The notes below the pieces were generated by a model that saw only the letters and a program-made list of their open reading frames with translations, did not search any database and had not been told where the DNA came from. From the IMG/VR virus record IMGVR_UViG_3300038853_000032: a stretch of DNA of 64,000 nucleotides; one strand, given 5' to 3'. The DNA comes from an uncultured virus (IMG/VR IMGVR_UViG_3300038853_000032) (taxonomy: Duplodnaviria > Heunggongvirae > Uroviricota > Caudoviricetes). This document shows positions 2,443 through 43,247 of the stretch, piece after piece. Both the position numbers and the translations under genes were made by a program. The first letter of the stretch is position 1, and the number at the start of each line of letters is the position of its first letter.

Positions 2443-2472
2443 AAAAAAAAGAGGCAATTATAAATTGCCTCT
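2443..2472 (-). terminator. Intrinsic terminator ending the large ncRNA candidate
   Basis: AGAGGCAAT-TTATA-ATTGCCTC followed by T8. Confidence 0.8.
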
Positions 2473-3384
2473 GTGTCAACACAAAGAAAGGTAAACTATG
2501 TTTAAATAAAAATGGGTGGTGGTGGTTAACCCGCCGTCGTGTCGTCCAACCCTCAGACCGCGCCTTTCTGGATGGCAATCCTCACAGTGTTCTAAGTCTT
2601 GTGACTGACTCCGTGTATTTATTGGTAAACACGTCACCCCTGAGAAACTGATTAACCACTGGTCTCAGATCAGAGGTATGTATTCTAACTAAAGTACCAC
2701 TTTAATGTATAGAATTACATATTTCATTTTACCTTATTGGCTGGCTTACATATCTACCTAAGTAGTAATGTAGTACCACTCCATACACTTGGGCTAAAAT
2801 GCTTCAAGAACATTTTTGGAAGGTATGAAAAACCTTAACTCCTAACGAGCTATGAGTTACCACCGGCAGTTTTTTGAGCCTTTCATAAAGTCCAGCTCAG
2901 GCAAACCGCTACCTATTTCAGTTTATTATCAACCCGATAAAAGGTGATACACGGTAAACTGAAAAACCGACTCGCTTAGGCTCCGAAGCAGGGATTCCTT
3001 GGGCTTCTTTTACCTTTCGCGGAACGCCAGTCCCTTGCTGGCTTAATTCGAAGGTTATTTATTCGATTTAAAAACTTCCATTCTAGTCGTATTAAATCCG
3101 ATTGAATGGTAATCGCCTTCTTTAGTCCGATCTGCGTCAATACCTCTACAGATCGCTAGAGTTAGGGTATCTTAACTATACAGGATCGTGCCTGTATTCA
3201 CAGTATCAACTTCCTCTGAAACCTCAGTGAGATTTCGCGCTTGATACGCTCGCACAACCAACTTCACCGAAACTCAATCTGATTGCGTCATTAAAAGTCT
3301 TACGACTTCTCGGAAGGAACTCCGTAATTTCGGCTTCGGTAACTTTTTGCTTGGTGACTACTCACGGTCGCTCAATTACCGTAT
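2443..3384 (-). ncRNA. Large (~940 nt) highly structured non-coding RNA candidate, family unassigned
   Basis: Own promoter (3391-3419) and terminator (2443-2472); no credible ORF; GC above flanks; more than 12 stems visible by eye, one closed by a GUAA tetraloop. Confidence 0.7.
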
Positions 3385-3390
3385 TTTTAT

Positions 3391-3419
3391 ATTATAACAA
3401 AATTTTTATCATTAAGCAA
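3391..3419 (-). promoter_or_regulatory. Sigma70-type promoter
   Basis: TTGCTT(3419-3414)-17-TATAAT(3396-3391). Confidence 0.8.
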
Positions 3420-3461
3420 GATTTTTTTAACATTCGTTATTTTACTTACTGATAAAAATTT

Positions 3462-3665
3462 AATTAACAGAAAGGAGGGAGGCTGTAGCGCGTTCCGTGC
3501 TACCGTTGGATCATTAACCCTTTTTTATCTTGTCACCAGAACTAGTTAGACTAGGTGGGAAGTGGTGTGGGAGGATGATGCCTCTCAATGAATAAAGGAT
3601 TTGCCGAACTTGCAAAGGCTTCGCTGAACTCGCCAAGGACTGTAAAAAACCTGTTATTCACTTAA
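3462..3665 (-). ncRNA. ~200-nt ncRNA candidate
   Basis: Promoter TTGCGT-17-TAATAT at 3701-3673; hairpins such as GUAGCAC/GCGCUAC; CU-rich tracts; no ORF. Confidence 0.45.
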
Positions 3666-3749
3666 TATAATAATATTATCAAAGTTTTAAGCATTACGCA
3701 AGAAAAAAATTAATCTTTTTATTATAATTTAAGAAACTTTTTTTTCACT

Positions 3750-3831
3750 GTATGTAGCCCCCAAACCCGCGACATACTCTGACTCACTTCCACCGTACTA
3801 TTCCTTACGGAACACCTACCAGAGTCTTACC
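3750..3831 (-). ncRNA. Structured RNA motif, copy 1
   Basis: GGUAAG..stem..CC-GUAA-GG..stem..GCGGGUUUGGGGGCUA; promoter TTGCTA-17-TATAAT at 3952-3924. Confidence 0.6.
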
Positions 3832-4120
3832 TGTTTTACCAAATGAAAGAACTTATGCAGTTGCAGTTAAACATGAAAGGGTTTAAACATTACAAAACGT
3901 TTTATCTCTCATTCAGTATATTAATTATATCTAAAATTTAACCTTTTAGCAAGTAAAAAGTGAACTTTTCAGGAAGGATTATGCCAACATAAGTTGATCC
4001 CTGGGGTAAGTTCTAACCTGCCACCTAACGCGATATATGGCCCAACGTTATTAATCCGTATCTACCTTCTTGTATACCATCTTCAGGTCTTTGATGACTC
4101 AAACGGTAGCATTTCCACGC

Positions 4121-4378
4121 CTAATAGTCAACAGCAAAATACTGCTCGTCTAGATAAAGATCAATATACTTCATCGCACTACGAATACTTGCCGCGTCCC
4201 CTCCAGCCTCGAATATATTAGAATCGACAGTTTTCCCGTCCTCTTTATAAATCAAAGTCTGTGGGAACCTTCCATAGAAAGTCATACTAATTGTAAAACC
4301 TCGATAAGGAATTCTAAGTAAAGGTGTTTTCACTTCTTCACCCTTTTCCATATCTATAACTTTTAAAGGCTTACTCAT
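4121..4378 (-). CDS. Hypothetical protein
   Basis: 85-aa ATG ORF with plausible composition. Confidence 0.6.
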   Translation of the reverse strand: MSKPLKVIDMEKGEEVKTPLLRIPYRGFTISMTFYGRFPQTLIYKEDGKTVDSNIFEAGGDAASIRSAMKYIDLYLDEQYFAVDY

Positions 4379-4397
4379 TTTTATCTTTCTATTTTAG

Positions 4398-4478
4398 GCG
4401 CATAGCCCCCAAACCCGCTATACACAATGGCTCTACTCTCAAACTATACCCTCACGGTTTACCAACTAGAACCTTACC
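4398..4478 (-). ncRNA. Structured RNA motif, copy 2
   Basis: Same 16-nt core (4403-4418 = 3755-3770), same GGUAAG spacing, covarying stems, GUGA tetraloop. Confidence 0.6.
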
Positions 4479-4760
4479 AAAAATGTGGGGCTAACAGTAG
4501 CCCCACGCGGATGCGTTACGGCATCACCCGCGACTGCAAGCAGCCGTATTAATGCCAGTCACGAGATTCAGAACTAATTCAAAATTACTCTACCAGCTCT
4601 CTTCTAGTATGATGAAGAGCTCGTGACTAAAAAATAACTTTTTCAGTCAACTGTAGGAGGGGGACTGGCTACCCCTGTAAGTTCACATTTCGCTACGTGA
4701 TGGTGGAGGCCGTGCGTTAGCTGTGATTCCTCATTAAGTTACCTCACACTTAACTCTTAG
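4479..4760 (-). ncRNA. Structured RNA candidate(s) with a pseudoknot and terminator-like hairpin
   Basis: Promoter TTGCTT-17-TATAAT at 4793-4765; 9-bp stem AGUCACGAG/CUCGUGACU; UACGGC/GCCGUA crossing GCGGGUG/CAUCCGC; GUGGGGCUA/UAGCCCCAC plus U tract. Confidence 0.5.
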
Positions 4761-5100
4761 ATTTATTATATAAAATTTTAAAGAAAAAAGCAAGTAAAAA
4801 GTTAATTTTAAAACTATTTTACTTTAAAAGAAAGAAACTTCATTTTCAACCATACCCAGTAATCTGTTAATTTCATCGAACGTACGACTTCTTTTCCTCC
4901 TACTGTTTCTTTAACATAACGAGGAATAAAGCTTTGAGATACTGGAATAGTATTTGAAGTAAACATTCCCTAAATATACTTCAAATTTGCATAAGAGACA
5001 AATTTAAAATTTTTTATTTTAAAATTTAAAGGCAAAAAAATAGACTTTCCCTAGTAGAAAAGCCCAGCTCTCATTATTTTTTTCAATAACAGTAAAAAGA

Positions 5101-16343: not shown

Positions 16344-16417
16344 TGGAGCGGATAACCGAATTTGAATCGGTACTAAAAGCTTGGAAGGCTCTTGTGCTGC
16401 CATTACACCATATCCGC
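16344..16417 (-). tRNA. tRNA-Gly(TCC) with encoded CCA
   Basis: GCGGATA TGGTGTAATGGCAGCAC A AGAGC CTTCCAA GCTTT TAGT ACCGA TTCAAAT TCGGT TATCCGC TCCA. Confidence 0.95.
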
Positions 16418-17415: not shown

Positions 17416-17973
17416 TTATTTATAGATTCCAAAACTCAGTGTGATAGAATCCGTAGGATAATATGCTTTATGATTAGTATTTTTTGGAAGATAAACCCAA
17501 TCATTTGTGCCTAAAGAAATCCGGCGTTTTTTAAGTTTAATATCCTTTTTTCCTCGTAAACAGTATATCAAAACACCCATAGGATCTTGATGAAAATTAA
17601 AAGAAAAAGAATTTTTCTTTCCAAAATATATATGACAATCTACTTTTGAAGCACCAAAAGCTCGCTGTAAATTTTCACAAAATTTAATATAGTTATTATT
17701 ATAACTTTCTATATTATTAATTTTAACTAATGATTTTTCTTTTAAAAAACCATACAACTCTGCCACTGAGTGACAATGATGATTAACTAACGAACTATTT
17801 TGTGAAGAATCAATAAAAAATATAGACTCAGTACTAAAATAATTAGGATCTAATATCACATCCTCATAATAAATATCTAAAGACCTGTCAGGAATATAGG
17901 TAGCTTTACCAACTCTATTAACATTAGAAGCAATAGACATTAAAGCTAAAAAACTATTTTTAAAATCTTTCAT
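17416..17973 (-). CDS. JmjC/cupin oxygenase-like protein
   Basis: CHIYFG..SF.FHQDP..VLIY..RGKK...WVYLPK.T.HKA. Confidence 0.75.
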   Translation of the reverse strand: MKDFKNSFLALMSIASNVNRVGKATYIPDRSLDIYYEDVILDPNYFSTESIFFIDSSQNSSLVNHHCHSVAELYGFLKEKSLVKINNIESYNNNYIKFCENLQRAFGASKVDCHIYFGKKNSFSFNFHQDPMGVLIYCLRGKKDIKLKKRRISLGTNDWVYLPKNTNHKAYYPTDSITLSFGIYK

Positions 17974-18886
17974 TATACCAATCTAACAAATGCTTAAATC
18001 CATTACACGAATATGTTAAGTCTTTAACATCTCTCAAATGCTCAGATAAACACGAACCTAAATAATCACATTTAGAACAATACAAATTATTACTCACTCT
18101 TTCTTTTTCCACATCAGTCCACTCTAAATATTCTTCAAAACAATCAAACTCTAAAAAGTACTCGTTATCCTGTTTATCAAACTCTAAAGTAGCGAACTTG
18201 CCAGTAGGAGTTAAATAAACATGACTATCACTAAAGGCGCTCTTATAATAAGAACCGCTTTTGGTAATACTACCTTTAATTAACTTTTCATTAATAAATT
18301 CAAAATTTTTGGGAACCCCACTTGTAATCCACTTAATAACAAACTTTTCGTATTCTGTGTATAAAATATCTTGAGAATTAGCTTGACTAGTAGAATAGGG
18401 TTTAATTTCTACACTTTTAATAGCTGAACATAAGTTTAATTCACTGATCATTTCTTCTACGTTTTTTTTAAGTATACAACGAGAAGCTAAAATTAATACA
18501 GCTAAAGGTTTAGAAGAAAACATCATATTATTAAAAACTAATCTACGTTTTTCTCTGCAATCAAAATCATAACTAACTGTTAAATCAACCCCTTTCCTAA
18601 ATAAAACAGGAACCATTGCAGAAAAATTTGTAATAATATTAATAGAAGAGGAATACTGCTCTAACATAGGTAGCAAAGTATTTAAGTATCTAGAAGGTAA
18701 TAAAGCTATTTCTCCACCGTATAAATCTATATGCGTAATTTCTACCTGTTCAGATACTGACGCTAATCTACTATCAATAACAGTTAAAGGAGTAGTTAGC
18801 CTGTCTGATAACTGAGGTGATGTAAGATAACAAAACTTACATCTAAAATTACAATAATAAGTAGGATTCACACTAACAGTAAACAT
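17960..18886 (-). CDS. Radical SAM enzyme with C-terminal Cys cluster
   Basis: CNFRCKFC, YGGE; CSKCDYLGSC...C. Confidence 0.9.
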   Translation of the reverse strand: MFTVSVNPTYYCNFRCKFCYLTSPQLSDRLTTPLTVIDSRLASVSEQVEITHIDLYGGEIALLPSRYLNTLLPMLEQYSSSINIITNFSAMVPVLFRKGVDLTVSYDFDCREKRRLVFNNMMFSSKPLAVLILASRCILKKNVEEMISELNLCSAIKSVEIKPYSTSQANSQDILYTEYEKFVIKWITSGVPKNFEFINEKLIKGSITKSGSYYKSAFSDSHVYLTPTGKFATLEFDKQDNEYFLEFDCFEEYLEWTDVEKERVSNNLYCSKCDYLGSCLSEHLRDVKDLTYSCNGFKHLLDWYNERF

Positions 18887-19500
18887 TACTGAAAAATAAT
18901 CTCAGACAAAGGAACTGATGGTTTACGGGTAACAAAATTATAAGTCGCATCTACCCATAATTTTAAGCGTTTAGGTTGATAATCCCATATCTTTTTTCTT
19001 TCTCTGTTATTATCTAAAGTTCTAACACAAGACCACGAACAAGGTATATGGCTACACATACGGTGAGGGTCTAAAGGGTACATGGTAATATTAGTATAAT
19101 ACTTTTTAACAAGTTGGGAACGCAATATCTGTTTTTTATATAATTCGTAATATGAAGTTTTAGAATGGGCAGTAGCAAGGTTATTTTTTGAGTAGTTTTC
19201 TACACAACAACTGGGGTATCCTAATATTAAACCTATTTTCTCGTGATCATCGTTTTTCCAAGCCTCTCTAAAAATATCAAAAGAAATACTATAACTCACA
19301 AAGATGGCTGTATCCGATTTATCTTTAAGATAAAAGAGTGGAACGTGAAGTTTTTTACAAAAGTAGACAAAAAGAGGATTAAGAGCAAATCGTGCATCTA
19401 ATAAGCAAGCGGGTTTTTGCTTATTCCCAAACTGAATAAAATCTAAATAATCATGTTTTTTTAATAATAGGTATTTAAGTAAAAAAAGTTTTGGAAACAT
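18886..19500 (-). CDS. DUF483-like protein
   Basis: GLILGYPSCCVENY, HIPCSWSC. Confidence 0.6.
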   Translation of the reverse strand: MFPKLFLLKYLLLKKHDYLDFIQFGNKQKPACLLDARFALNPLFVYFCKKLHVPLFYLKDKSDTAIFVSYSISFDIFREAWKNDDHEKIGLILGYPSCCVENYSKNNLATAHSKTSYYELYKKQILRSQLVKKYYTNITMYPLDPHRMCSHIPCSWSCVRTLDNNRERKKIWDYQPKRLKLWVDATYNFVTRKPSVPLSEIIFQ

Positions 19501-19503
19501 TAT

Positions 19504-20214
19504 TTAATCAAATACCTCCGCGCCATGAATAAGAGCATTATTAATAAAATTATAAGAAAAACCGCAACCACACATTAAAACGTAACGGGAAGTATCTTTT
19601 TGAAAATAATCAAGTCCGTGATGTACAAAAAGAGGATTCATGTTATTTAAGATAATAACCTCATTAGGTTTAGGCTCTATTTCATATACCTCCTCAAAAA
19701 CAGCTTCTTTTGAAATCCTGTCAAAATACTCTTCGGGATAATAATGAGGAATTTGAGTGTTAGAAGAAGTAGTACACTTATCTACCTTGGCCACTCTAAA
19801 AATGCCATTAGGCAGTTCTCCTCCATAAACTAAAATTTGCATAAAAGAAGAATCAAAACCATCCCAATGCCAAGGTATAGAATTTTTTCCCAGAACTTTA
19901 TTTATCATAATATTATAATTATCAAAACTTCCGTATAAAGTTTTCCAAAAAGTAAACTCTTTTCTAGACTGAATAAGAGAAGATAGTAAATCATTATACC
20001 TTGTACAGTTTAAATAATAATCAGAAGTACGATGCGCTATAGGGCCATCCCAACACGGAGAAAAAATATTCTCTACTTTATCGTTTGCAACTTCAAGAGT
20101 ATAATCTTCTTCCTCCATCATTGACAAAAATTGGTTATACATAGTTGGTTCAATATCTAAAGTAGTAAAACCTTTATGAAAATAATCATCTAGTGAAAAC
20201 ATTACAATACGCAA
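19504..20214 (-). CDS. Fe(II)/2-oxoglutarate oxygenase-like
   Basis: PWHWDG...P..NEVIILNN.NP.FVH...RY. Confidence 0.7.
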   Translation of the reverse strand: MRIVMFSLDDYFHKGFTTLDIEPTMYNQFLSMMEEEDYTLEVANDKVENIFSPCWDGPIAHRTSDYYLNCTRYNDLLSSLIQSRKEFTFWKTLYGSFDNYNIMINKVLGKNSIPWHWDGFDSSFMQILVYGGELPNGIFRVAKVDKCTTSSNTQIPHYYPEEYFDRISKEAVFEEVYEIEPKPNEVIILNNMNPLFVHHGLDYFQKDTSRYVLMCGCGFSYNFINNALIHGAEVFD

Positions 20215-20217
20215 TCC

Positions 20218-20763
20218 TTAATCGTGCACAAAACCAAAACTTGTAACAATTCTATCAACATCCAATTTTAAATACTCTACTTTATGCTCCCACATAGAAG
20301 TATGATCTAAAATAACTACATCATATTTAGCAGGGTAAATACACCCCATCTCTTCTTTAGTAAATGCATTTCTTATTTGTAACGCTCCACCAGTTTTTTT
20401 ACTCATGTTACTAAAGTATAAAAGAACTGCTATATTAGAACCTTCTTTAGTATCACTGTGCCACACATCAGTTCCAGGATCTACGCCATTAACAAATCCA
20501 TCATTATCGCCTAAATAGTATTTACCAAAATGTTTCTTAATATATTTTTTACCTACGTACCGATGAGTTTTTACAAGAGAGTTTAATAACCTCTCATTTT
20601 TAGCACAAACTTTAAAACCATCGGTATCGACCCAGGTAATGTTAAAATTCTCTAAATACTTAAAAGATTCCTTATCATTAAAGCGTAAAAAACCTTTAGA
20701 CAAAAGAGGAGTATGATAACGTCTATGCCTAACTGCTTTCCACATTTCAAAATCTTCTAGCAT
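20218..20763 (-). CDS. Fe(II)/2-oxoglutarate oxygenase
   Basis: WHSD..EG...LLYF...GGAL...WEHKV...R. Confidence 0.8.
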   Translation of the reverse strand: MLEDFEMWKAVRHRRYHTPLLSKGFLRFNDKESFKYLENFNITWVDTDGFKVCAKNERLLNSLVKTHRYVGKKYIKKHFGKYYLGDNDGFVNGVDPGTDVWHSDTKEGSNIAVLLYFSNMSKKTGGALQIRNAFTKEEMGCIYPAKYDVVILDHTSMWEHKVEYLKLDVDRIVTSFGFVHD

Positions 20764-21818
20764 TAATTCAGTTTATTTATCCTCATAATATCGGAAGCTA
20801 TTCTCTTCATCTTAACACAGTGTTGCTCTACAACATCAGCCTCTTTTAAGTCTTTAACAGTTTTCCTACAACCATTACAAATACTAAACATAGGACAAGT
20901 AAAACACTCATTTTTTAGACTTACCAAATCTGGATTATCTTGAAGCGGAGTAAAAAACTGCCCTTCCATTTCTTTTTTAAAACTTATAGACTCGTCCTGA
21001 TCATCTCCAAAAGCACCGCAAGAATAGTAATCTCCGCTTGGATTAAAAGCTCTAATTCCCTCGTCGCAGTTGCGGCATTGAGGACAAGAAGTGTTTCCAA
21101 TACTGAGCCTTGTCATCATCTGTTTAGTGTTAAATTCCCAAGGAGCCAGTCCTTCGTTGTAAACTTCTAAATAAATTTCATAAATTTTAGATAACAAATA
21201 AGGATCTTTTTGATCTCCAGAAGCCATAGCGTAGTTTAATTTACACTCAACTCCAACTTTTTCTGATCTATTATAATTATGTAAAGTTCCCTGTGGCTCC
21301 TCAAAATTACTCATTTTTCGTGCCAACTCTACATTTTTAACAGCGAACTGCTCATTACCCTTAGTAATAACAGATATAAAGTCCGGACGGTATCCAACAT
21401 ATTCCAACATAGCATCGGAGCAATACCAAAAATCACTTTCAGTAAATAAACTATAATCTCCTTTAAGCCTGCCATCTCCATAATTAAAAGAAGTAGTAAC
21501 TCCTACTCGTTCATTATCAAACAATGATACCCACTTCTTAGGGTTTTTATAAAACGGCCACAGATTTGTAGTTAAAGCAATAGAAGTAGATAAATTATAA
21601 TTATCTAAATACTCAATAATTTTCCAGTAATAAGAAGGATCAACCATTAAAGGGTCTCCTCCATTAACAATAATTGTTTTAGTCTGCGGAAAACGTTTTA
21701 AAAAACGAAAGATATAATCATGAGATAATAAGTCGGATTTATGAGCAGCGATACGGGTAGAAGAACAAAAAGTGCATTTAAAATTACATAACTCCGTTGG
21801 CTTAATAATGAGTTCCAT
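20763..21818 (-). CDS. Radical SAM/SPASM-type enzyme
   Basis: IKPTELCNFKCTFC, NGGDP; CPQCRNC..YSCG..CFTCPMFSICNGC..C. Confidence 0.92.
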   Translation of the reverse strand: MELIIKPTELCNFKCTFCSSTRIAAHKSDLLSHDYIFRFLKRFPQTKTIIVNGGDPLMVDPSYYWKIIEYLDNYNLSTSIALTTNLWPFYKNPKKWVSLFDNERVGVTTSFNYGDGRLKGDYSLFTESDFWYCSDAMLEYVGYRPDFISVITKGNEQFAVKNVELARKMSNFEEPQGTLHNYNRSEKVGVECKLNYAMASGDQKDPYLLSKIYEIYLEVYNEGLAPWEFNTKQMMTRLSIGNTSCPQCRNCDEGIRAFNPSGDYYSCGAFGDDQDESISFKKEMEGQFFTPLQDNPDLVSLKNECFTCPMFSICNGCRKTVKDLKEADVVEQHCVKMKRIASDIMRINKLN

Positions 21819-22815
21819 GACTGTCCACGTAATCGTACACGTCTTTTAACCAACACTCTTCCTGGGTTCGAGTATCAGACAAGTCATGGCTCAAATAACA
21901 CCCTAAAGAACATCGGCTAAAATGATGACACTCTAAACAATTATAATCTTCCATAAACCTACGTTCCATATCATTCTTATTTCTTTTATATCCCTCATAA
22001 TAACCACCTAGTAAAATCGTACACATTCCCGACCTATTATTCGGTAAAATGGTGTAAGTATCTTGACAACTCATTCTTATTTTTTTACGAGAAAAGTAAT
22101 CTTTGATAGGTAGACAGTCAGGATAATTATCCACTAAGAACAACATTAATTTTTTTAAATCTACATCCTTAGGCATAAATTGTGTTGAATGATTTTCAGG
22201 TGTGTAATAATCAAAATAAATATCAAAATGAGTATATAAATAACCAAAAAAAGGTGTCTCATAAGACAAAAATTTATTAATAGCTGGTTTTGTCATTATA
22301 ACATTAACTGTTCGAATCCAGTGATTAAGTTCTCTTACGTTTTTCTTAAAAACACTAAAAGTTTCGTTATTAAACCGTGAGTGTGGATCATAAGAAGTCA
22401 TTAAATACACACGAGAATCTAATAAAAATAAACGAGCCATCAGCTCGTCCACTCGTTTATAATCCGAAAAAACTAAATTAGTAGTAAATGCGACTTCTAA
22501 AGATATTTCAAACCTGTGAGCCCACTCAAATAAAGAACTTACAAGATCATAGTAATCTTTAAATGTGCTTTTTTCTATTAAATCTGAAAATACCTCACCT
22601 CCCATCAAATGAACAGAAAATTGAGTACGACCAGCTTTTTTTAAATTAAGAATTGCTTTAATAATGTAATCTTTTTTTTCTTTTATATTGTAAAGACCTT
22701 CCCTAGAAGAGTGATCTTGAGGACAAAAGCGACACGCTAAGTTACATTGTTCAAATAGGGTAACAATAATTTCCCCGTTTATAGTTCTTTTTTCAGCGTA
22801 ATCTAATATCTCCAT
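21802..22815 (-). CDS. Radical SAM enzyme with C-terminal Cys cluster
   Basis: CNLACRFC, MGGE; CLECHHFSRCSLGC..C. Confidence 0.9.
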   Translation of the reverse strand: MEILDYAEKRTINGEIIVTLFEQCNLACRFCPQDHSSREGLYNIKEKKDYIIKAILNLKKAGRTQFSVHLMGGEVFSDLIEKSTFKDYYDLVSSLFEWAHRFEISLEVAFTTNLVFSDYKRVDELMARLFLLDSRVYLMTSYDPHSRFNNETFSVFKKNVRELNHWIRTVNVIMTKPAINKFLSYETPFFGYLYTHFDIYFDYYTPENHSTQFMPKDVDLKKLMLFLVDNYPDCLPIKDYFSRKKIRMSCQDTYTILPNNRSGMCTILLGGYYEGYKRNKNDMERRFMEDYNCLECHHFSRCSLGCYLSHDLSDTRTQEECWLKDVYDYVDSHGTHY

Positions 22816-23441
22816 TAGGGAGCGCGGTCCGTTGAAACAATATCCTTTTTAGATTCCCAGTCAACTATACAATTACATACAATTGCCCATCGAGTATGTT
22901 CTCCCAAATAACGAGAAACTTCGTGCCATATATAAGCAGGAGCTGCCACAAGGGTTCCACGAACTGGAACAATAGTTTTCGTTTTTGGACTACAAAAAGT
23001 AATTTGATTAATAAACTTAGGATCATGCAGAAGCAAATCTCCTCCCTGTCCTTGTACTACATCCAAATAAAAAACAGCAAACGCATCTACATCCGAATGA
23101 GAATGGGCGGGTTTATAATCAAACTTTTTCATAGGAGTAATGCGTGACAAAGAGTCAACAGACAAAGAGAAGCTTAAATTATGTCCATGTCGACGTCCCA
23201 ACTCACCAAAAGCGTCAGTAAACATAGCCTTAAGTTCTAATTGCTCTGGAGTACCTTCCTCAAAAACATTAGCATCAGCATCTCCTGCCTCCACATAATC
23301 AATTCCTTTTTCTGCCTTTAATAGCTCTAATTTAGCCTGCATTTGGTTAGCTAAATTAGTATACCAACTATCTTCCAAATCATACTCACGCCAAATAATG
23401 TGAGTTTCAAAAGCAAAAAATGACATATTTTTAATGTGCAT
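22815..23441 (-). CDS. Putative Fe(II)/2OG oxygenase (TIGR02466-like)
   Basis: PAHSH, VFYL...GGDLLLHDP, P.YIWHEV, R.AI..N. Confidence 0.75.
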   Translation of the reverse strand: MHIKNMSFFAFETHIIWREYDLEDSWYTNLANQMQAKLELLKAEKGIDYVEAGDADANVFEEGTPEQLELKAMFTDAFGELGRRHGHNLSFSLSVDSLSRITPMKKFDYKPAHSHSDVDAFAVFYLDVVQGQGGDLLLHDPKFINQITFCSPKTKTIVPVRGTLVAAPAYIWHEVSRYLGEHTRWAIVCNCIVDWESKKDIVSTDRAP

Positions 23442-24183
23442 CAGTGTAATCCTTTCCTAAGGCCTTAAGCATAGAAAGAAGAAAATTATGCTTAGTAGCA
23501 TAATAATAAAATAAATTTTTTCCATGAAACATATACTCTTCAAATTGCGGCTTAAAGTAATAAAGGGTTCCTAAAGGTTTTTGATAGTAATTATGAAAAA
23601 AGAAATCTAAAGAAAATAAATTAACTATACTATAACCCACATACTCCCTGTTAGTAACTATTTCTATCCCGTCAGTTAAAAATTTTTCATCATTTAATTC
23701 GGGTAAACATTTTTGTGCATAAATAGTACAAGAATCTAAAAAAGTTACCCAACGCGAAACAGTACTCGTATTTTGCCTAATATAAAGATCTGCTTCCGAA
23801 AGAGAAAAATAAGGATTAGGATAAGCATTCTCTATATCATATCCTTTATAACGAAATACTATAGAAGAAGCAGCTAAATTAAATACTGGAAGATTAACTA
23901 CTGCTGGTAAAGTCATATACTCATAAAGAAGCGATGACCTTTTTTCAAAATCTAAAGCTTTAGAAAAAGTTAAATCCGCAGGAACATCTAAGTTAGACAA
24001 GTAAACTAAAAGTTTTTTATCCTGCAATTTACTACAAGAGTAATCAATATGAAATGATAAGTCTTTATTTTCAAAATACTTTCTTAAATTTTCAATTTCT
24101 ATAGGGACTACACAATTTATAATATTACCAAGATCAGGAGTATCTATATTTAACACTATCTCCTTCCTCTCGAACCGTGACAA
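23431..24183 (-). CDS. Hypothetical protein coupled to the putative substrate gene
   Basis: 250 aa, overlaps the end of 24156-24746. Confidence 0.7.
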   Translation of the reverse strand: MSRFERKEIVLNIDTPDLGNIINCVVPIEIENLRKYFENKDLSFHIDYSCSKLQDKKLLVYLSNLDVPADLTFSKALDFEKRSSLLYEYMTLPAVVNLPVFNLAASSIVFRYKGYDIENAYPNPYFSLSEADLYIRQNTSTVSRWVTFLDSCTIYAQKCLPELNDEKFLTDGIEIVTNREYVGYSIVNLFSLDFFFHNYYQKPLGTLYYFKPQFEEYMFHGKNLFYYYATKHNFLLSMLKALGKDYTDAH

Positions 24184-24746
24184 CTAGTATGACAACTAGA
24201 ATGACAATAAAACTCTTGAACTGTTACAGCGTTATCTTTTAAAGAATTCCACTGATTATAAAGTGCTGTTGTAAAGTCATTAAAATTAGACGCATCAATT
24301 TCTTCATCAGTCTCAACGTCATCAGCTGCTGCTAAACTTGACAAAGTATTGGACTGTTCGTAAGTATTAGAACTTAAATGAGTAACGTTTGTTTCGTTTG
24401 AATCAATAGTGTCGTTATCTCGATACTGCTGTAAATTAACCTTGCGAATTTTTGTAAAAATAGAAACGTAATTAACTAAAACTGTAGCTAATTGTGCTGC
24501 TGTAATTTTAGAATCCGTAATTTTATCAGTTCCAGGAGTTCCTAAAGTACCACTTCCTAACCCAATCGCTCCTGTAGTAAGTGCCGCAGGAATGGCATTT
24601 TGCAGCGTTTGCCCAGTAGAATTACTCGGCCTGTTACCACTATCCCATACAATAGCACTCTCAATATTGTCTCTTACATTATCAAGAAAACTATTTACCA
24701 TTCGCTGTTTGGTTACAGCTTCACCACTTGAAGGAGTATCACTCAT
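24156..24746 (-). CDS. Putative radical SAM substrate protein with C-terminal (CHxS)3-RGRR tail
   Basis: Ends EFYCHSSCHTSCHGSRGRR; the rest is Thr/Ser/Asn/Ala-rich with no other Cys. Confidence 0.7.
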   Translation of the reverse strand: MSDTPSSGEAVTKQRMVNSFLDNVRDNIESAIVWDSGNRPSNSTGQTLQNAIPAALTTGAIGLGSGTLGTPGTDKITDSKITAAQLATVLVNYVSIFTKIRKVNLQQYRDNDTIDSNETNVTHLSSNTYEQSNTLSSLAAADDVETDEEIDASNFNDFTTALYNQWNSLKDNAVTVQEFYCHSSCHTSCHGSRGRR

Positions 24747-24758
24747 AATTATCTCCTA

Positions 24759-25061
24759 TTAACAGTTACGTTTAATTCTACGCAAAGCTTTTTTAGCGAA
24801 TTTTTCTGCGTATACACTATCGTGTATTACTTTATTAAACCTATCTTCTACACAATTTAAAAAAATCTTTTCTTCTCTACCAAATCTAAAGGTTTGAAAA
24901 GCACATTGTTTTATAATTGTTCTTGAATCAAAGCCATACGGCCAGGTGAATTTTCCAGTAATAGAGTCGATTCTAGAACTACAACTTTCTGGACTAAAAC
25001 TAAAAGTTGGCGTTGAAATCGTAAAAACCATTAAAATTGGTAGTATAATTTTATATTTCAT
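24759..25061 (-). CDS. Small exported protein with four Cys
   Basis: Signal-peptide-like N-terminus. Confidence 0.6.
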   Translation of the reverse strand: MKYKIILPILMVFTISTPTFSFSPESCSSRIDSITGKFTWPYGFDSRTIIKQCAFQTFRFGREEKIFLNCVEDRFNKVIHDSVYAEKFAKKALRRIKRNC

Positions 25062-25070
25062 TATAACTTT

Positions 25071-26111
25071 TTATGCTACTAACTTTTCAGTAGCGTTCCT
25101 TTCTTTTAACTTTACCATTAAACTCCTAGCTGAACCACATTGGTCGTCCTCCCAAGCCAATTGATGACAATCTCCACCACAATAAGCAAAAACAGGGCAC
25201 TCATAACACCTAGGATCACGAGAAAGCTCACACGCAATTATATGTTGTCTACTGGGATTATATAATAATTTTACTATATTATCATCGATATGTCCATAAA
25301 AATCTTCAGGCGCTGAATTTGGACACCCTCCAATAGTACCGTCAGCGTTGATAGTAAATATTTTTTGTTCACAGTTACGACAAAAAGTAGCTTCTTTAGT
25401 GCCATGAGTAAATTTTCTTAAAATCGAATTTAAAAATACATTATCAAACCAGCCAAAAGCATTATGATGTACCGTATCTTCGTACAGTTGAACAAACCAT
25501 CTATCTAAATCTTTATTAGAAGGTAAAATATGGTTGTTTTTTCTTGCACTCCCATTCACAGTAATACGCTCTAAATGCAAAGCATCCACATTTAAAGACT
25601 TAACAAATCGTAAAATTTCAATAGGTCTTTTAGCAATAACATCCTTACTTAACGAAACAAATAAAGAAACATAATTATCAGAGTTCTGAGTTAAAGTATT
25701 AATATTTTTTAACCATAAATCATATTGTTGAGAATTAGCAAACCTAATGGTAGGGTCCCAACTCGTCCCAATTTGTCCCCTTAAAGCTGTCTCAATAAAT
25801 TCTAATTTATCATCATCTAAATTAAAAACCAAATTTGTACAAACCCCATAGCTAGAGCTATCCCACAAATGATGAGTGCCTCTCCACACAGACCACATGT
25901 CACTAAGGGGTGCCAAAAACGGTTCTCCTCCATGAAACTCCACATGGATATCTTTAATCGTTGAAATATCATTTTTAATCCTTTTAAACCAATCTATCGT
26001 TTTTTCTGCATTAAAATATATTTTTCTCCCACGACTCCCAGAAGTAAAACAATGAGCACAATCTAATTGACATGTTTCCGTTGTTTTCAAATATACCATC
26101 AAGCTTCGCAT
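25071..26111 (-). CDS. Radical SAM/SPASM-type enzyme
   Basis: KTTETCQLDCAHC, FHGGEP; CRNC...GGCPN...CYECPVFAYCGGDC..C. Confidence 0.92.
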   Translation of the reverse strand: MRSLMVYLKTTETCQLDCAHCFTSGSRGRKIYFNAEKTIDWFKRIKNDISTIKDIHVEFHGGEPFLAPLSDMWSVWRGTHHLWDSSSYGVCTNLVFNLDDDKLEFIETALRGQIGTSWDPTIRFANSQQYDLWLKNINTLTQNSDNYVSLFVSLSKDVIAKRPIEILRFVKSLNVDALHLERITVNGSARKNNHILPSNKDLDRWFVQLYEDTVHHNAFGWFDNVFLNSILRKFTHGTKEATFCRNCEQKIFTINADGTIGGCPNSAPEDFYGHIDDNIVKLLYNPSRQHIIACELSRDPRCYECPVFAYCGGDCHQLAWEDDQCGSARSLMVKLKERNATEKLVA

Positions 26112-42652: not shown

Positions 42653-42930
42653 ATAACCCCATTCTTACAAAACTATGCTTAATCACCTTACTTTGTAGTT
42701 TCGTAGGAGAAACAGCGTTCTCTAAAGAAGCAACATCCCCCACTCTCACCACTCCCCAAGAAAAACCTATAAAATTTGACTTTAATAATTGGAAACACCG
42801 TACACTTGTTATAAAACACTTGAGTATTAGCGACTTTTATAATCTCGCCCCACATCCTAATTGGAAAATAGGTAGAGGAAAGTGTCGTAGTAAATGGACA
42901 AATCTTACTACTAATGAATGTCTAGAATAA
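42649..42930 (+). CDS. Hypothetical exported protein
   Basis: Signal peptide; GGAG SD. Confidence 0.55.
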   Translation: MNNPILTKLCLITLLCSFVGETAFSKEATSPTLTTPQEKPIKFDFNNWKHRTLVIKHLSISDFYNLAPHPNWKIGRGKCRSKWTNLTTNECLE

Positions 42931-42949
42931 ATAGTCTCGATGATAGAAG

Positions 42950-43192
42950 CAAAATAAGCAGACAGGACACGGGGGCAGTACCCGTCACCTCCACCACCAG
43001 TATTACAAAAAGTTTCATAGGGGGTGAATTAGGATCGACTGATGTAGTAAAAGCAACTGGAGAGACAGGTGAGCAAGCAACCTAAACTGCAAGAAACTTA
43101 TAAATGCCAACGATAATGAGGCATTTGAGGAATATGCTTTAGCAGCTTAATTTTCTCGGGGTTCGGAGGCACCTGGCAACAGAAGCCTCCAT
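42950..43192 (+). ncRNA. ssrA: Circularly permuted (two-piece) tmRNA
   Basis: Acceptor piece GGACACGGGGGCAGTACCCGTCACCTCCACCA (ends 42996) precedes 5' GGGGGTGAATTAGGATCGAC (43020); G3:U70 pair; tag 43106-43150 ANDNEAFEEYALAA*. The 5' boundary is approximate. Confidence 0.92.
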
Positions 43193-43221
43193 CTCATACA
43201 CTAAGAATATATCTTATACAT

Positions 43222-43247
43222 GGGGTCCTTTGGACCTCCTTTTTTTT
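43222..43247 (+). terminator. Terminator after tmRNA
   Basis: GGGGTCC-TTT-GGACCTC plus T tract. Confidence 0.7.

Follow-up and report, generated by a model that had tools for sequence, protein, structure and literature searches.

Results

Setting and content of the island

The DNA analysed here is the whole stretch of 64,000 nucleotides (nt) of the uncultured virus record IMGVR_UViG_3300038853_000032 (IMG/VR), called the window below. Roughly between positions 2440 and 4800 it has an island of about 2.3 kilobases (kb) that contains one orphan open reading frame (ORF) and no other ORF longer than 54 amino acids (aa). Sigma-70-like promoters (TTGCxx, 17-nt spacer, TATAAT) at 4793-4765, 3952-3924, 3701-3673 and 3419-3391 and terminators split the island into units. 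Within it lie the two copies of the RNA domain studied here, which is built of two helices and purine-rich unpaired segments (Table 1). Judging from its homologs, the domain very probably represents an RNA family with this architecture.

Two copies of a two-helix domain

Both copies are read on the minus strand and start with GGUAAG. All the elements that a preliminary description of the sequence had listed are present in them, namely stem 1, an inner GNRA hairpin, stem 2 and the same terminal loop. Stem 1 pairs GACUC with GAGUC in copy 1 and GGUUCUA with UAGAGCC in copy 2, and the inner hairpin is CC-GUAA-GG in the former and CC-GUGA-GG in the latter. Stem 2 is GUAUGUCGC/GCUACAUAC with one C-U mismatch in copy 1 and GUGUAUAGC/GCUAUGCGC in copy 2, and its loop is GGGUUUGGGG in both. 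It is followed by an A-run in copy 1 and AAAAUAG in copy 2, and by a U-tract in neither. The model-aligned lengths of 87 and 86 nt preserve the one-base difference noted in that description, but its spacing figures of 77 and 76 nt were not reproduced.

Over the aligned columns, the copies share 76% identity. An exact 16-mer spanning the loop is common to both (3755-3770 and 4403-4418, both minus) and has no third occurrence in the 64 kb. By chance about 0.18 matches would be expected, and two or more occurrences arose in 0/100 shuffles. Single-sequence folding recovers both outer stems and predicts the loop to be unpaired in both copies, and the minimum free energy (MFE) fold of copy 2 has both stems. 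The copies have folding z-scores of -1.31 and -2.31, versus -2.77 for the reverse complement of copy 1. Single-sequence folding by itself is neither significant nor decisive, so the case for an RNA rests on the homologs.

Homologs and covariation

Related loci fetched from scans are referred to by L-numbers (L121, L122, L172, L198 etc.). Pattern scans based on its conserved parts located the element in 3 IMG/VR contigs. One metagenome pattern scan returned 102 loci, 31 of which have the element, while the other 71, judged by eye and not scanned with a model, are G+C-rich chance matches. Two covariance models were employed, R1 from the close homologs and the broader R2 that includes the weaker matches of R1.

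All the 34 loci run against R1 have a match of at least 87 bits. On the window, R1 gives 87.3 bits to copy 2 (expect value, E, of 1.7e-20) and 71.4 bits to copy 1 (E 2e-16), and its next best match has 14.2 bits. R2 gives them 64.5 and 46.4 bits, respectively, and matches nothing else in the 64 kb. The metagenome contigs L154 and L204 hold both window copies unchanged; they come from the same or a near-identical phage and thus are not independent evidence.

Eighteen distinct close homologs were aligned with MAFFT, which is blind to structure. Compensatory double changes occur at 6 of the 21 predicted pairs, three per outer stem, and 97.6% of the cells are paired versus 26-46% with the partners slid by 1-3 columns. 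The cells with double changes number 29 versus 9.2 +/- 2.3 in the shuffled alignments, and the observed value was reached in 0/500 shuffles. Counted instead as pairs with at least one double change, the value (6 versus 4.4 shuffled, reached in 79/500 shuffles) is not significant at this depth. Exchange between U-A and U-G is frequent, such as 9 U-A and 9 U-G at one pair, and hence the pattern fits only a minus-strand RNA.

Weaker R1 matches lie 200-800 nt away from the main copy in the fetched loci. With R2, 58 matches were obtained from 22 sources, 43 of them distinct, and an island has 2-4 diverged paralogs. In the alignment of these 43 members, which was fitted to R2, double changes are found at 19/19 pairs and 95.7% of the cells are paired versus 29-47% slid. 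The preliminary description had proposed a functional RNA family and held that a lack of homologs with conserved pairing would speak against it. Dozens of homologs hold both outer stems through compensatory changes, and this supports the functional-RNA reading. The two-helix domain is under purifying selection for its fold and three purine-rich unpaired elements.

What defines the family

In the 43-member alignment, the consensus of the 5′ edge is GG-N-A-R-G (GGNARG). Stem 1 consists of 5-7 pairs, and its interior ranges across the members from a few nt to a hairpin of about 50 nt. After stem 1 come a conserved A, one to three linker bases and then stem 2 of 7-9 pairs, which is closed by RGC/GCY. 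The terminal loop is composed of two G-tracts, GGG-N2-3-(G)GGG, with UUU, UAA, AAC, CAC, UGA, AGA, AGC or longer variants at the centre, and the whole domain is about 65-100 nt long. The constant part of the family is its purine-rich unpaired segments.

The loop centre and the stem 1 interior vary among the paralogs, so the GNRA hairpin and the identical loop are features of one subfamily. As described earlier, both window copies have the hairpin and the same GGGUUUGGGG loop. However, the hairpin is not universal among the family members, and the loop is lineage-specific since the paralogs keep the two G-tracts only and vary at the centre.

The island of L172 has four diverged paralogs, at 1955, 2480, 3009 and 3227. 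The copies take different positions in their units, from about 8 nt past the predicted start through the middle to the 3′ end, and every copy is oriented like the promoters. Copy 1 occupies the slot of a diverged paralog in L198 but is nearest in sequence (75%) to the main copy of L162, and this indicates exchange between paralogs.

Novelty of the family

The motif was called unrecognised in the preliminary description, and indeed none of the 4227 models of Rfam 15, including riboswitches, ribozymes, glnA/Downstream-peptide, GOLLD, ROOL and transfer-messenger RNA (tmRNA), matches the copies. Two chance-level Rfam matches appear in 3400-4900 at E <= 10, neither on the copies, and three in the L172 island at E <= 5. 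Among 50,697 cultured-phage records, blastn found no match to the window island or the L172 island. Likewise, tblastn with the neighbouring 518-aa protein found none in the cultured-phage records.

A pattern scan of the genomes of 185,579 bacterial and archaeal species gave 55 matches, none of them real, as R2 scores them at 21.8 bits at best. When IMG/VR was scanned with a bare 14-mer, 1 of the 120 returned loci was real and the others were chance matches in G+C-rich DNA. In the literature, 10-mers of the loop strings occur, but there is no 14-mer and no phage RNA among the matches listed. The family was seen only in uncultured T4-like phages of marine, estuarine and freshwater origin. It is new to the databases searched; the general kind, phage-encoded structured small RNAs, is known, and the architecture and the setting are the unusual part.

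Other features of the island and the window

Table 1. Features of the island, listed from high to low positions in the direction of the minus strand
Feature	Position	Strand	Remarks
Sigma-70-like promoter	4765-4793	minus	TTGCTT, 17-nt spacer, TATAAT; read from sequence; opens the ~280-nt non-coding unit upstream of copy 2
Non-coding unit, ~280 nt	4479-4758	minus	between promoter 4765-4793 and terminator 4485-4506; G+C-richer than surroundings; GNRA-capped hairpins
Intrinsic-terminator-like hairpin and U-run	4485-4506	minus	9 pairs, 6 G-C; tail ATTTTT; ends directly before copy 2
Copy 2 of the domain	4393-4478	minus	stem 1 around the GUGA hairpin; loop at 4407-4416
Orphan ORF, 85 aa	4121-4378	minus	inserted between copy 2 and the conserved block; not part of the domain
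Conserved non-coding block	4050-4120	minus	79-81% identity to L198, L213, L137, L156, L183; follows the motif in related phages
Conserved hairpin-plus-promoter cassette	3919-4048	minus	-35 TTGCTA 3947-3952, -10 TATAAT 3924-3929; promoter scan
Copy 1 of the domain	3745-3831	minus	5-base-pair stem 1 with fully paired GUAA hairpin inside; loop 3759-3768
Promoter-like site	3673-3701	minus	TTGCGT, 17-nt spacer, TAATAT; read from sequence; 48 nt past stem 2 of copy 1
Conserved hairpin module	3503-3582	minus	arms CAUCAU / AUGAU; CCUCCCACAC stretch right after the 5′ arm; homologous in L172 2766-2844 and others
Large non-coding unit, ~0.77-0.94 kb	2443-3381	minus	promoter 3391-3419 to terminator-like sites near 2510 and 2443-2472; no ORF >54 aa; no Rfam match

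The promoter at 4765-4793 is missing from the promoter scan because its first hexamer matches the consensus at 3/6 positions only. The non-coding unit that it opens has homologs in L156, L198 and L137, with 67-72% identity over 4845-4551. In the conserved block 4050-4120, an indel between L121 and L122 breaks any reading frame. The promoter of the cassette 3919-4048 drives a predicted unit of about 170-200 nt with copy 1 at its end. As had been noted, no gene lies downstream of this copy, and a promoter-like site follows instead; the stretch 3731-3673 matches the promoter regions of at least 8 related loci. The module at 3503-3582 is a candidate pyrimidine-rich RNA of the same island.

One promoter cassette recurs within and between phages, at 3919-4048, 3673-3731 and 3381-3459 in the window and at many sites in L123, L172 and L198. 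The module order differs between the related islands. This resembles the PeSL-mediated shuffling of T4-like phages that PMC4122927 describes.

The orphan ORF 4121-4378 starts near copy 2, whose stem 2 ends 19 nt before the ATG, in agreement with the distance of about 20 nt given earlier. Its product has no family match in the Pfam and PHROGs scans, and its relatives are confined to its own 99%-identical cluster. In L121 the conserved block comes directly after the motif and the ORF is absent, and the L122 ortholog of copy 2 is likewise without it. An ORF of at least 50 aa is found within 120 nt in 13/57 domain contexts, mostly as short GTG/TTG frames. Thus, the link between copy 2 and this ORF that the preliminary description had drawn is incidental, as the ORF is an orphan and the orthologous copies in other phages have none there.

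The window is DNA of a marine T4-like phage and also has genes for polynucleotide kinase, thymidylate synthase, exonuclease, endolysin, spanin, peptide deformylase, transaldolase and 2OG-Fe(II) oxygenase, and a series of genes for radical-SAM and sugar-nucleotide proteins. Of the radical-SAM proteins, four paralogs (308-351 aa, all phrog_1802) are clustered at 17960-26111 on the minus strand, and the other arm carries heptose/cytidylyltransferase, aminotransferase, epimerase and methyltransferase genes. The radical-SAM cluster and the sugar genes suggest a large locus for sugar or nucleotide modification.

The only window RNAs recognised by Rfam, at gathering scores over the whole window, and by ARAGORN are a two-piece (permuted) alpha-type tmRNA at 42884-43241 on the plus strand, with the tag ANDNEAFEEYALAA, and a tRNA-Gly(UCC) at 16344-16417 on the minus strand. 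No tRNA gene is in the island. Alpha-type two-piece tmRNAs have been reported in Melnitz-like and pelagimyophage-type marine T4-like phages (PMC9004378). Related virus fragments of 34-46 kb have completeness ratings of 14-28%, and the genomes would thus be roughly 160-240 kb. A search for the T4 capsid family covered one of the records behind five related loci and gave no match there, which carries no weight either way.

Transcription of the island

The RNA data are contigs from four metatranscriptome runs, and they show presence rather than levels or ends. The best-covered part of the island is the large unit 2443-3381, with contigs in 4/4 runs (2612-3297 at a depth of 220, 2737-3381, 2684-3227 and 2884-3190). 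The contig 2737-3381 ends at the predicted start and has a poly(A)-type loose end at 2737, consistent with a minus-strand RNA. Another contig, 3479-3653, covers the hairpin module 3503-3582, and a contig at a low depth of 7.9 extends over 4039-4419, ending one base before the conserved loop-closing GC of copy 2.

In L198, the slot of the large unit is taken by a different non-coding unit of about 580 nt, which ends in a member of the motif family. Separately, one poly(A)-selected run has a relative's contig, differing at 5 of 54 nt, that stops at 3996 and carries 19 loose T residues in a row on the plus strand. This single contig is a weak sign of a poly(A) tail on a minus-strand RNA, which would end inside the conserved hairpin before the 3952 promoter.

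Candidate partners and structures

An invariant 11-mer, CACCUCCUUUC, identical in sequence to the 3′ end of bacterial 16S rRNA, is located 12-17 nt past the main copy in 12/21 related loci (L172 at 2580-2592, L131, L140, L142, L144, L152, L157, L162, L168, L194, L200 and L135). It is always on the RNA strand and is invariant across 10 diverged sequences. It follows neither window copy. The window has CCUCC-type stretches in the neighbouring units, at 3564-3580 and 3468-3482, the latter of which is a looser CCUCCCUCCUUUCUG.

No specific partner of the loop was found in cis per locus, as the best duplex sites differ among the paralogs and none is consistent. The one recurring site serves UUU loops only, and pairing there uses the stem-closing GC. 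A general helix closing the domain by its 5′ and 3′ flanks was not found either, since the pairing in 42 distinct contexts is no better than in shuffles (mean z -0.27). Where CACCUCCUUUC follows, RNAalifold predicts a closing helix of 4 invariant pairs with no covariation.

Three more structures were considered and rejected. A kissing contact of AAACC in the inner hairpin with GGUUU in the loop fits the main type but, by eye, not copy 1 or the other paralog classes. An intramolecular G-quadruplex is in the MFE fold of 0/43 members versus 58/860 shuffles. A canonical intrinsic terminator does not fit, as neither copy is in the terminator scan and their tails are those given above.

Discussion

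A proposed docking unit of small RNAs

We propose that the domain serves as a modular docking unit in phage small RNAs that are early and act in trans, and we put the probability of this mechanism, with the G-tract loop as the recognition surface, at about 40%. The exposed loop, which the stable stem holds out and the other purine-rich single strands flank, would offer a common surface to one partner. The partner would most likely be a protein, a less likely candidate being the loop of a pyrimidine-rich RNA like the CCUCC-type elements encoded alongside. The RNA-specific functions would reside in the variable sequences on either side of the domain, and the domain's repetition would let the island titrate or scaffold the partner early in infection. 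In line with such a unit, diverged paralogs are placed in different promoter-driven non-coding units of one island and at different places in the units, RNA contigs cover parts of the island, and the loop is predicted to be unpaired and lacks a conserved partner in cis.

Several observations weigh against the docking unit. The Pfam and PHROGs scans of the flanking ORFs revealed no conserved RNA-binding protein gene beside the islands, and the flanking genes vary by phage, polynucleotide kinase in the window and AdoMet decarboxylase in L172. No exact complement of the loop exists elsewhere in the 64-kb window. Many copies are at the 3′ end of a unit just before the next promoter or terminator, which equally fits a cis role. 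Moreover, the RNA contigs leave copy 1 uncovered and cover only 4393-4419 (27 nt) of copy 2, so the domain's own expression is predicted. Contigs drop small RNAs, and hence missing coverage of the copies tells nothing either way.

The loop was also paired in 18 variants with either the CACCUCCUUUC element or a generic 16S tail and compared with composition-matched shuffles. For 18/18 variants, the pairing is no better than in the shuffles. Depending on the variant, a fraction of 0.19-0.98 of the shuffles binds the element equally well or better, and for the 16S tail this fraction is 0.54-1.00. This argues against a co-encoded anti-Shine-Dalgarno-like element as the partner. Among the roles that the preliminary description had offered, a protein decoy, a small ribozyme and a loop-pairing RNA, the last is left unsupported in its simple form of pairing to a Shine-Dalgarno-type partner.

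The CsrB/RsmZ sponges resemble the islands in that several hairpins per locus show one conserved purine-rich loop motif, suggesting that a single partner is titrated. Their defining GGA loop motif, however, is absent from the commonest loop GGGUUUGGGG and several others, and no Rfam match links the two. The small stable RNAs of the T4 tRNA region, GOLLD and ROOL are structured RNAs of unknown function clustered in large phages. The island is similar to them as a cluster of phage structured RNAs, and the RNA libraries contain the neighbouring ~0.8-0.9-kb RNA in abundance. No Rfam model, those of GOLLD and ROOL among them, matches the island above chance level at E <= 10, and the island is free of tRNA genes.

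A possible cis-acting element of the transcript

Among the alternatives to the docking unit, a cis-acting transcript element survives best, although we consider it doubtful. It would be either a PeSL-type terminator/promoter stem-loop defining or protecting 3′ ends, or a put-like double hairpin giving RNA polymerase read-through. The domain is 3′-terminal in 5 of about 8 paralog classes, with the next -35 hexamer 4-50 nt off or a terminator U-run 29-39 nt off. In the 'mini' copies, a U-rich run after stem 2 and then the next promoter follow. Measured with a loose promoter pattern, the 'mini' copies lie 4-5 nt before a -35, whereas the next promoter-like site is 48 nt from copy 1 and 144-874 nt from the main copies.

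The last of these distances is hard to reconcile with such an element. So are the window copies, neither of which has a U-tract after stem 2, and the position of copy 2 after a terminator instead of before one. One class begins only about 8 nt past the predicted transcript start. In addition, the G-tracts and the 5′ GGNARG are conserved, whereas terminator loops normally are not.

T4-like phages have repeated TTGYVH-N17-TAWWAT promoters with a stem-loop just upstream of each, according to PMC4122927. Those PeSL cassettes are concentrated in plastic regions and linked to module shuffling, and the island resembles them in appearance. In contrast to the PeSLs, which are simple hairpins with variable loops, the domain here has two helices, conserved unpaired purines and covariation at the RNA level, and many copies are more than 100 nt away from a promoter-like site.

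In phage HK022, two diverged put copies, putL and putR, exist per genome. The put RNAs are described in PMC8632103 as phage-encoded, non-coding double hairpins of about 65 nt that act in cis and depend on the fold for their function, and they set a precedent for phage RNAs that work in cis. The similarity to putL and putR of the lambdoid HK022 lies in the phage-encoded non-coding double hairpin and its diverged copies downstream of early promoters. The differences, from a comparison with put by description only, are another phage group, 2-4 copies, the conserved G-tract loop and 5′ GGNARG, and the frequent placement at the 3′ end of a unit or after a terminator. Judged by position as a put RNA would be, the copies give a mixed picture; one class is directly before a terminator, copy 2 is directly after one and copy 1 precedes the next promoter.

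A possible aptamer or ribozyme

It is rather unlikely that the domain binds a ligand as an aptamer, perhaps repeated to serve as a sponge, or cleaves itself as a small ribozyme, with GGNARG, the conserved A and the G-tracts forming the pocket or the active site. Variable helices with invariant junction and loop nucleotides are a hallmark of aptamers and small ribozymes, and the domain has this pattern. The sole RNA contig into copy 2 ends at 4419 next to the loop-closing GC, but one contig end at that depth is no evidence of cleavage. Rfam gave no ribozyme or riboswitch match even at E <= 10. Neither a tertiary partner of the loop nor a general closing helix was found, and most contexts offer no expression platform or downstream gene, as the 13/57 count above indicates.

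The Shine-Dalgarno mimicry idea and weaker alternatives

The CACCUCCUUUC element and the CCUCC stretches raised the idea that the G-loops mimic Shine-Dalgarno sequences. The G-rich loop or the purine tracts would bind the 16S tail or the CACCUCCUUUC element and thereby redirect translation. The occurrence, strand and invariance of the element fit this idea, and one paralog class carries GGAGG in its internal loop. Against it stand the shuffle test, the lack of the element after both window copies and the closing helix whose pairs never covary. We regard this mimicry as very unlikely.

An element acting at the level of DNA, for instance a recombination hotspot or a site for protein binding in the mosaic island, has a still slimmer chance. 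The island is mosaic, its modules and promoter cassettes are shuffled between phages, and PeSL-type cassettes are proposed to mediate such shuffling (PMC4122927). However, compensatory changes keep the two helices, the G-U pairs, which are frequent, would read as A-C mismatches on the opposite strand, and all copies share the promoter orientation.

The weakest alternative, a regulator in the 5′ untranslated region of ORF 4121-4378, draws on the short distance from stem 2 to the ATG and on the RNA contig spanning 4039-4419, but it is largely refuted by comparison because copy 1 has no such ORF, the L121 and L122 orthologs lack it, the ORF is an orphan and the domain has no conserved position upstream of a homologous gene, as a riboswitch or leader would.

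Implications

A bolder version of the docking unit is a guide-and-handle RNA system, which we regard as improbable for now. In it, one phage or host protein would bind the G-tract loop as a handle and join the early small RNAs into ribonucleoprotein particles, and the variable arms would capture Shine-Dalgarno regions to reprogram host translation. The arms would include the exact look-alike of the 16S rRNA 3′ end and the other CCUCC elements. Such a system, if true, would have no described counterpart and would operate in abundant ocean phages.

Few structured non-coding RNAs are known in phages, and most of these are known from cultured coliphages. The R1 and R2 models are direct means to annotate the present family and to profile the proteins that occur with it. 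These results suggest that these abundant phages devote a sizeable early-expressed locus to RNA-based functions overlooked by current annotation.

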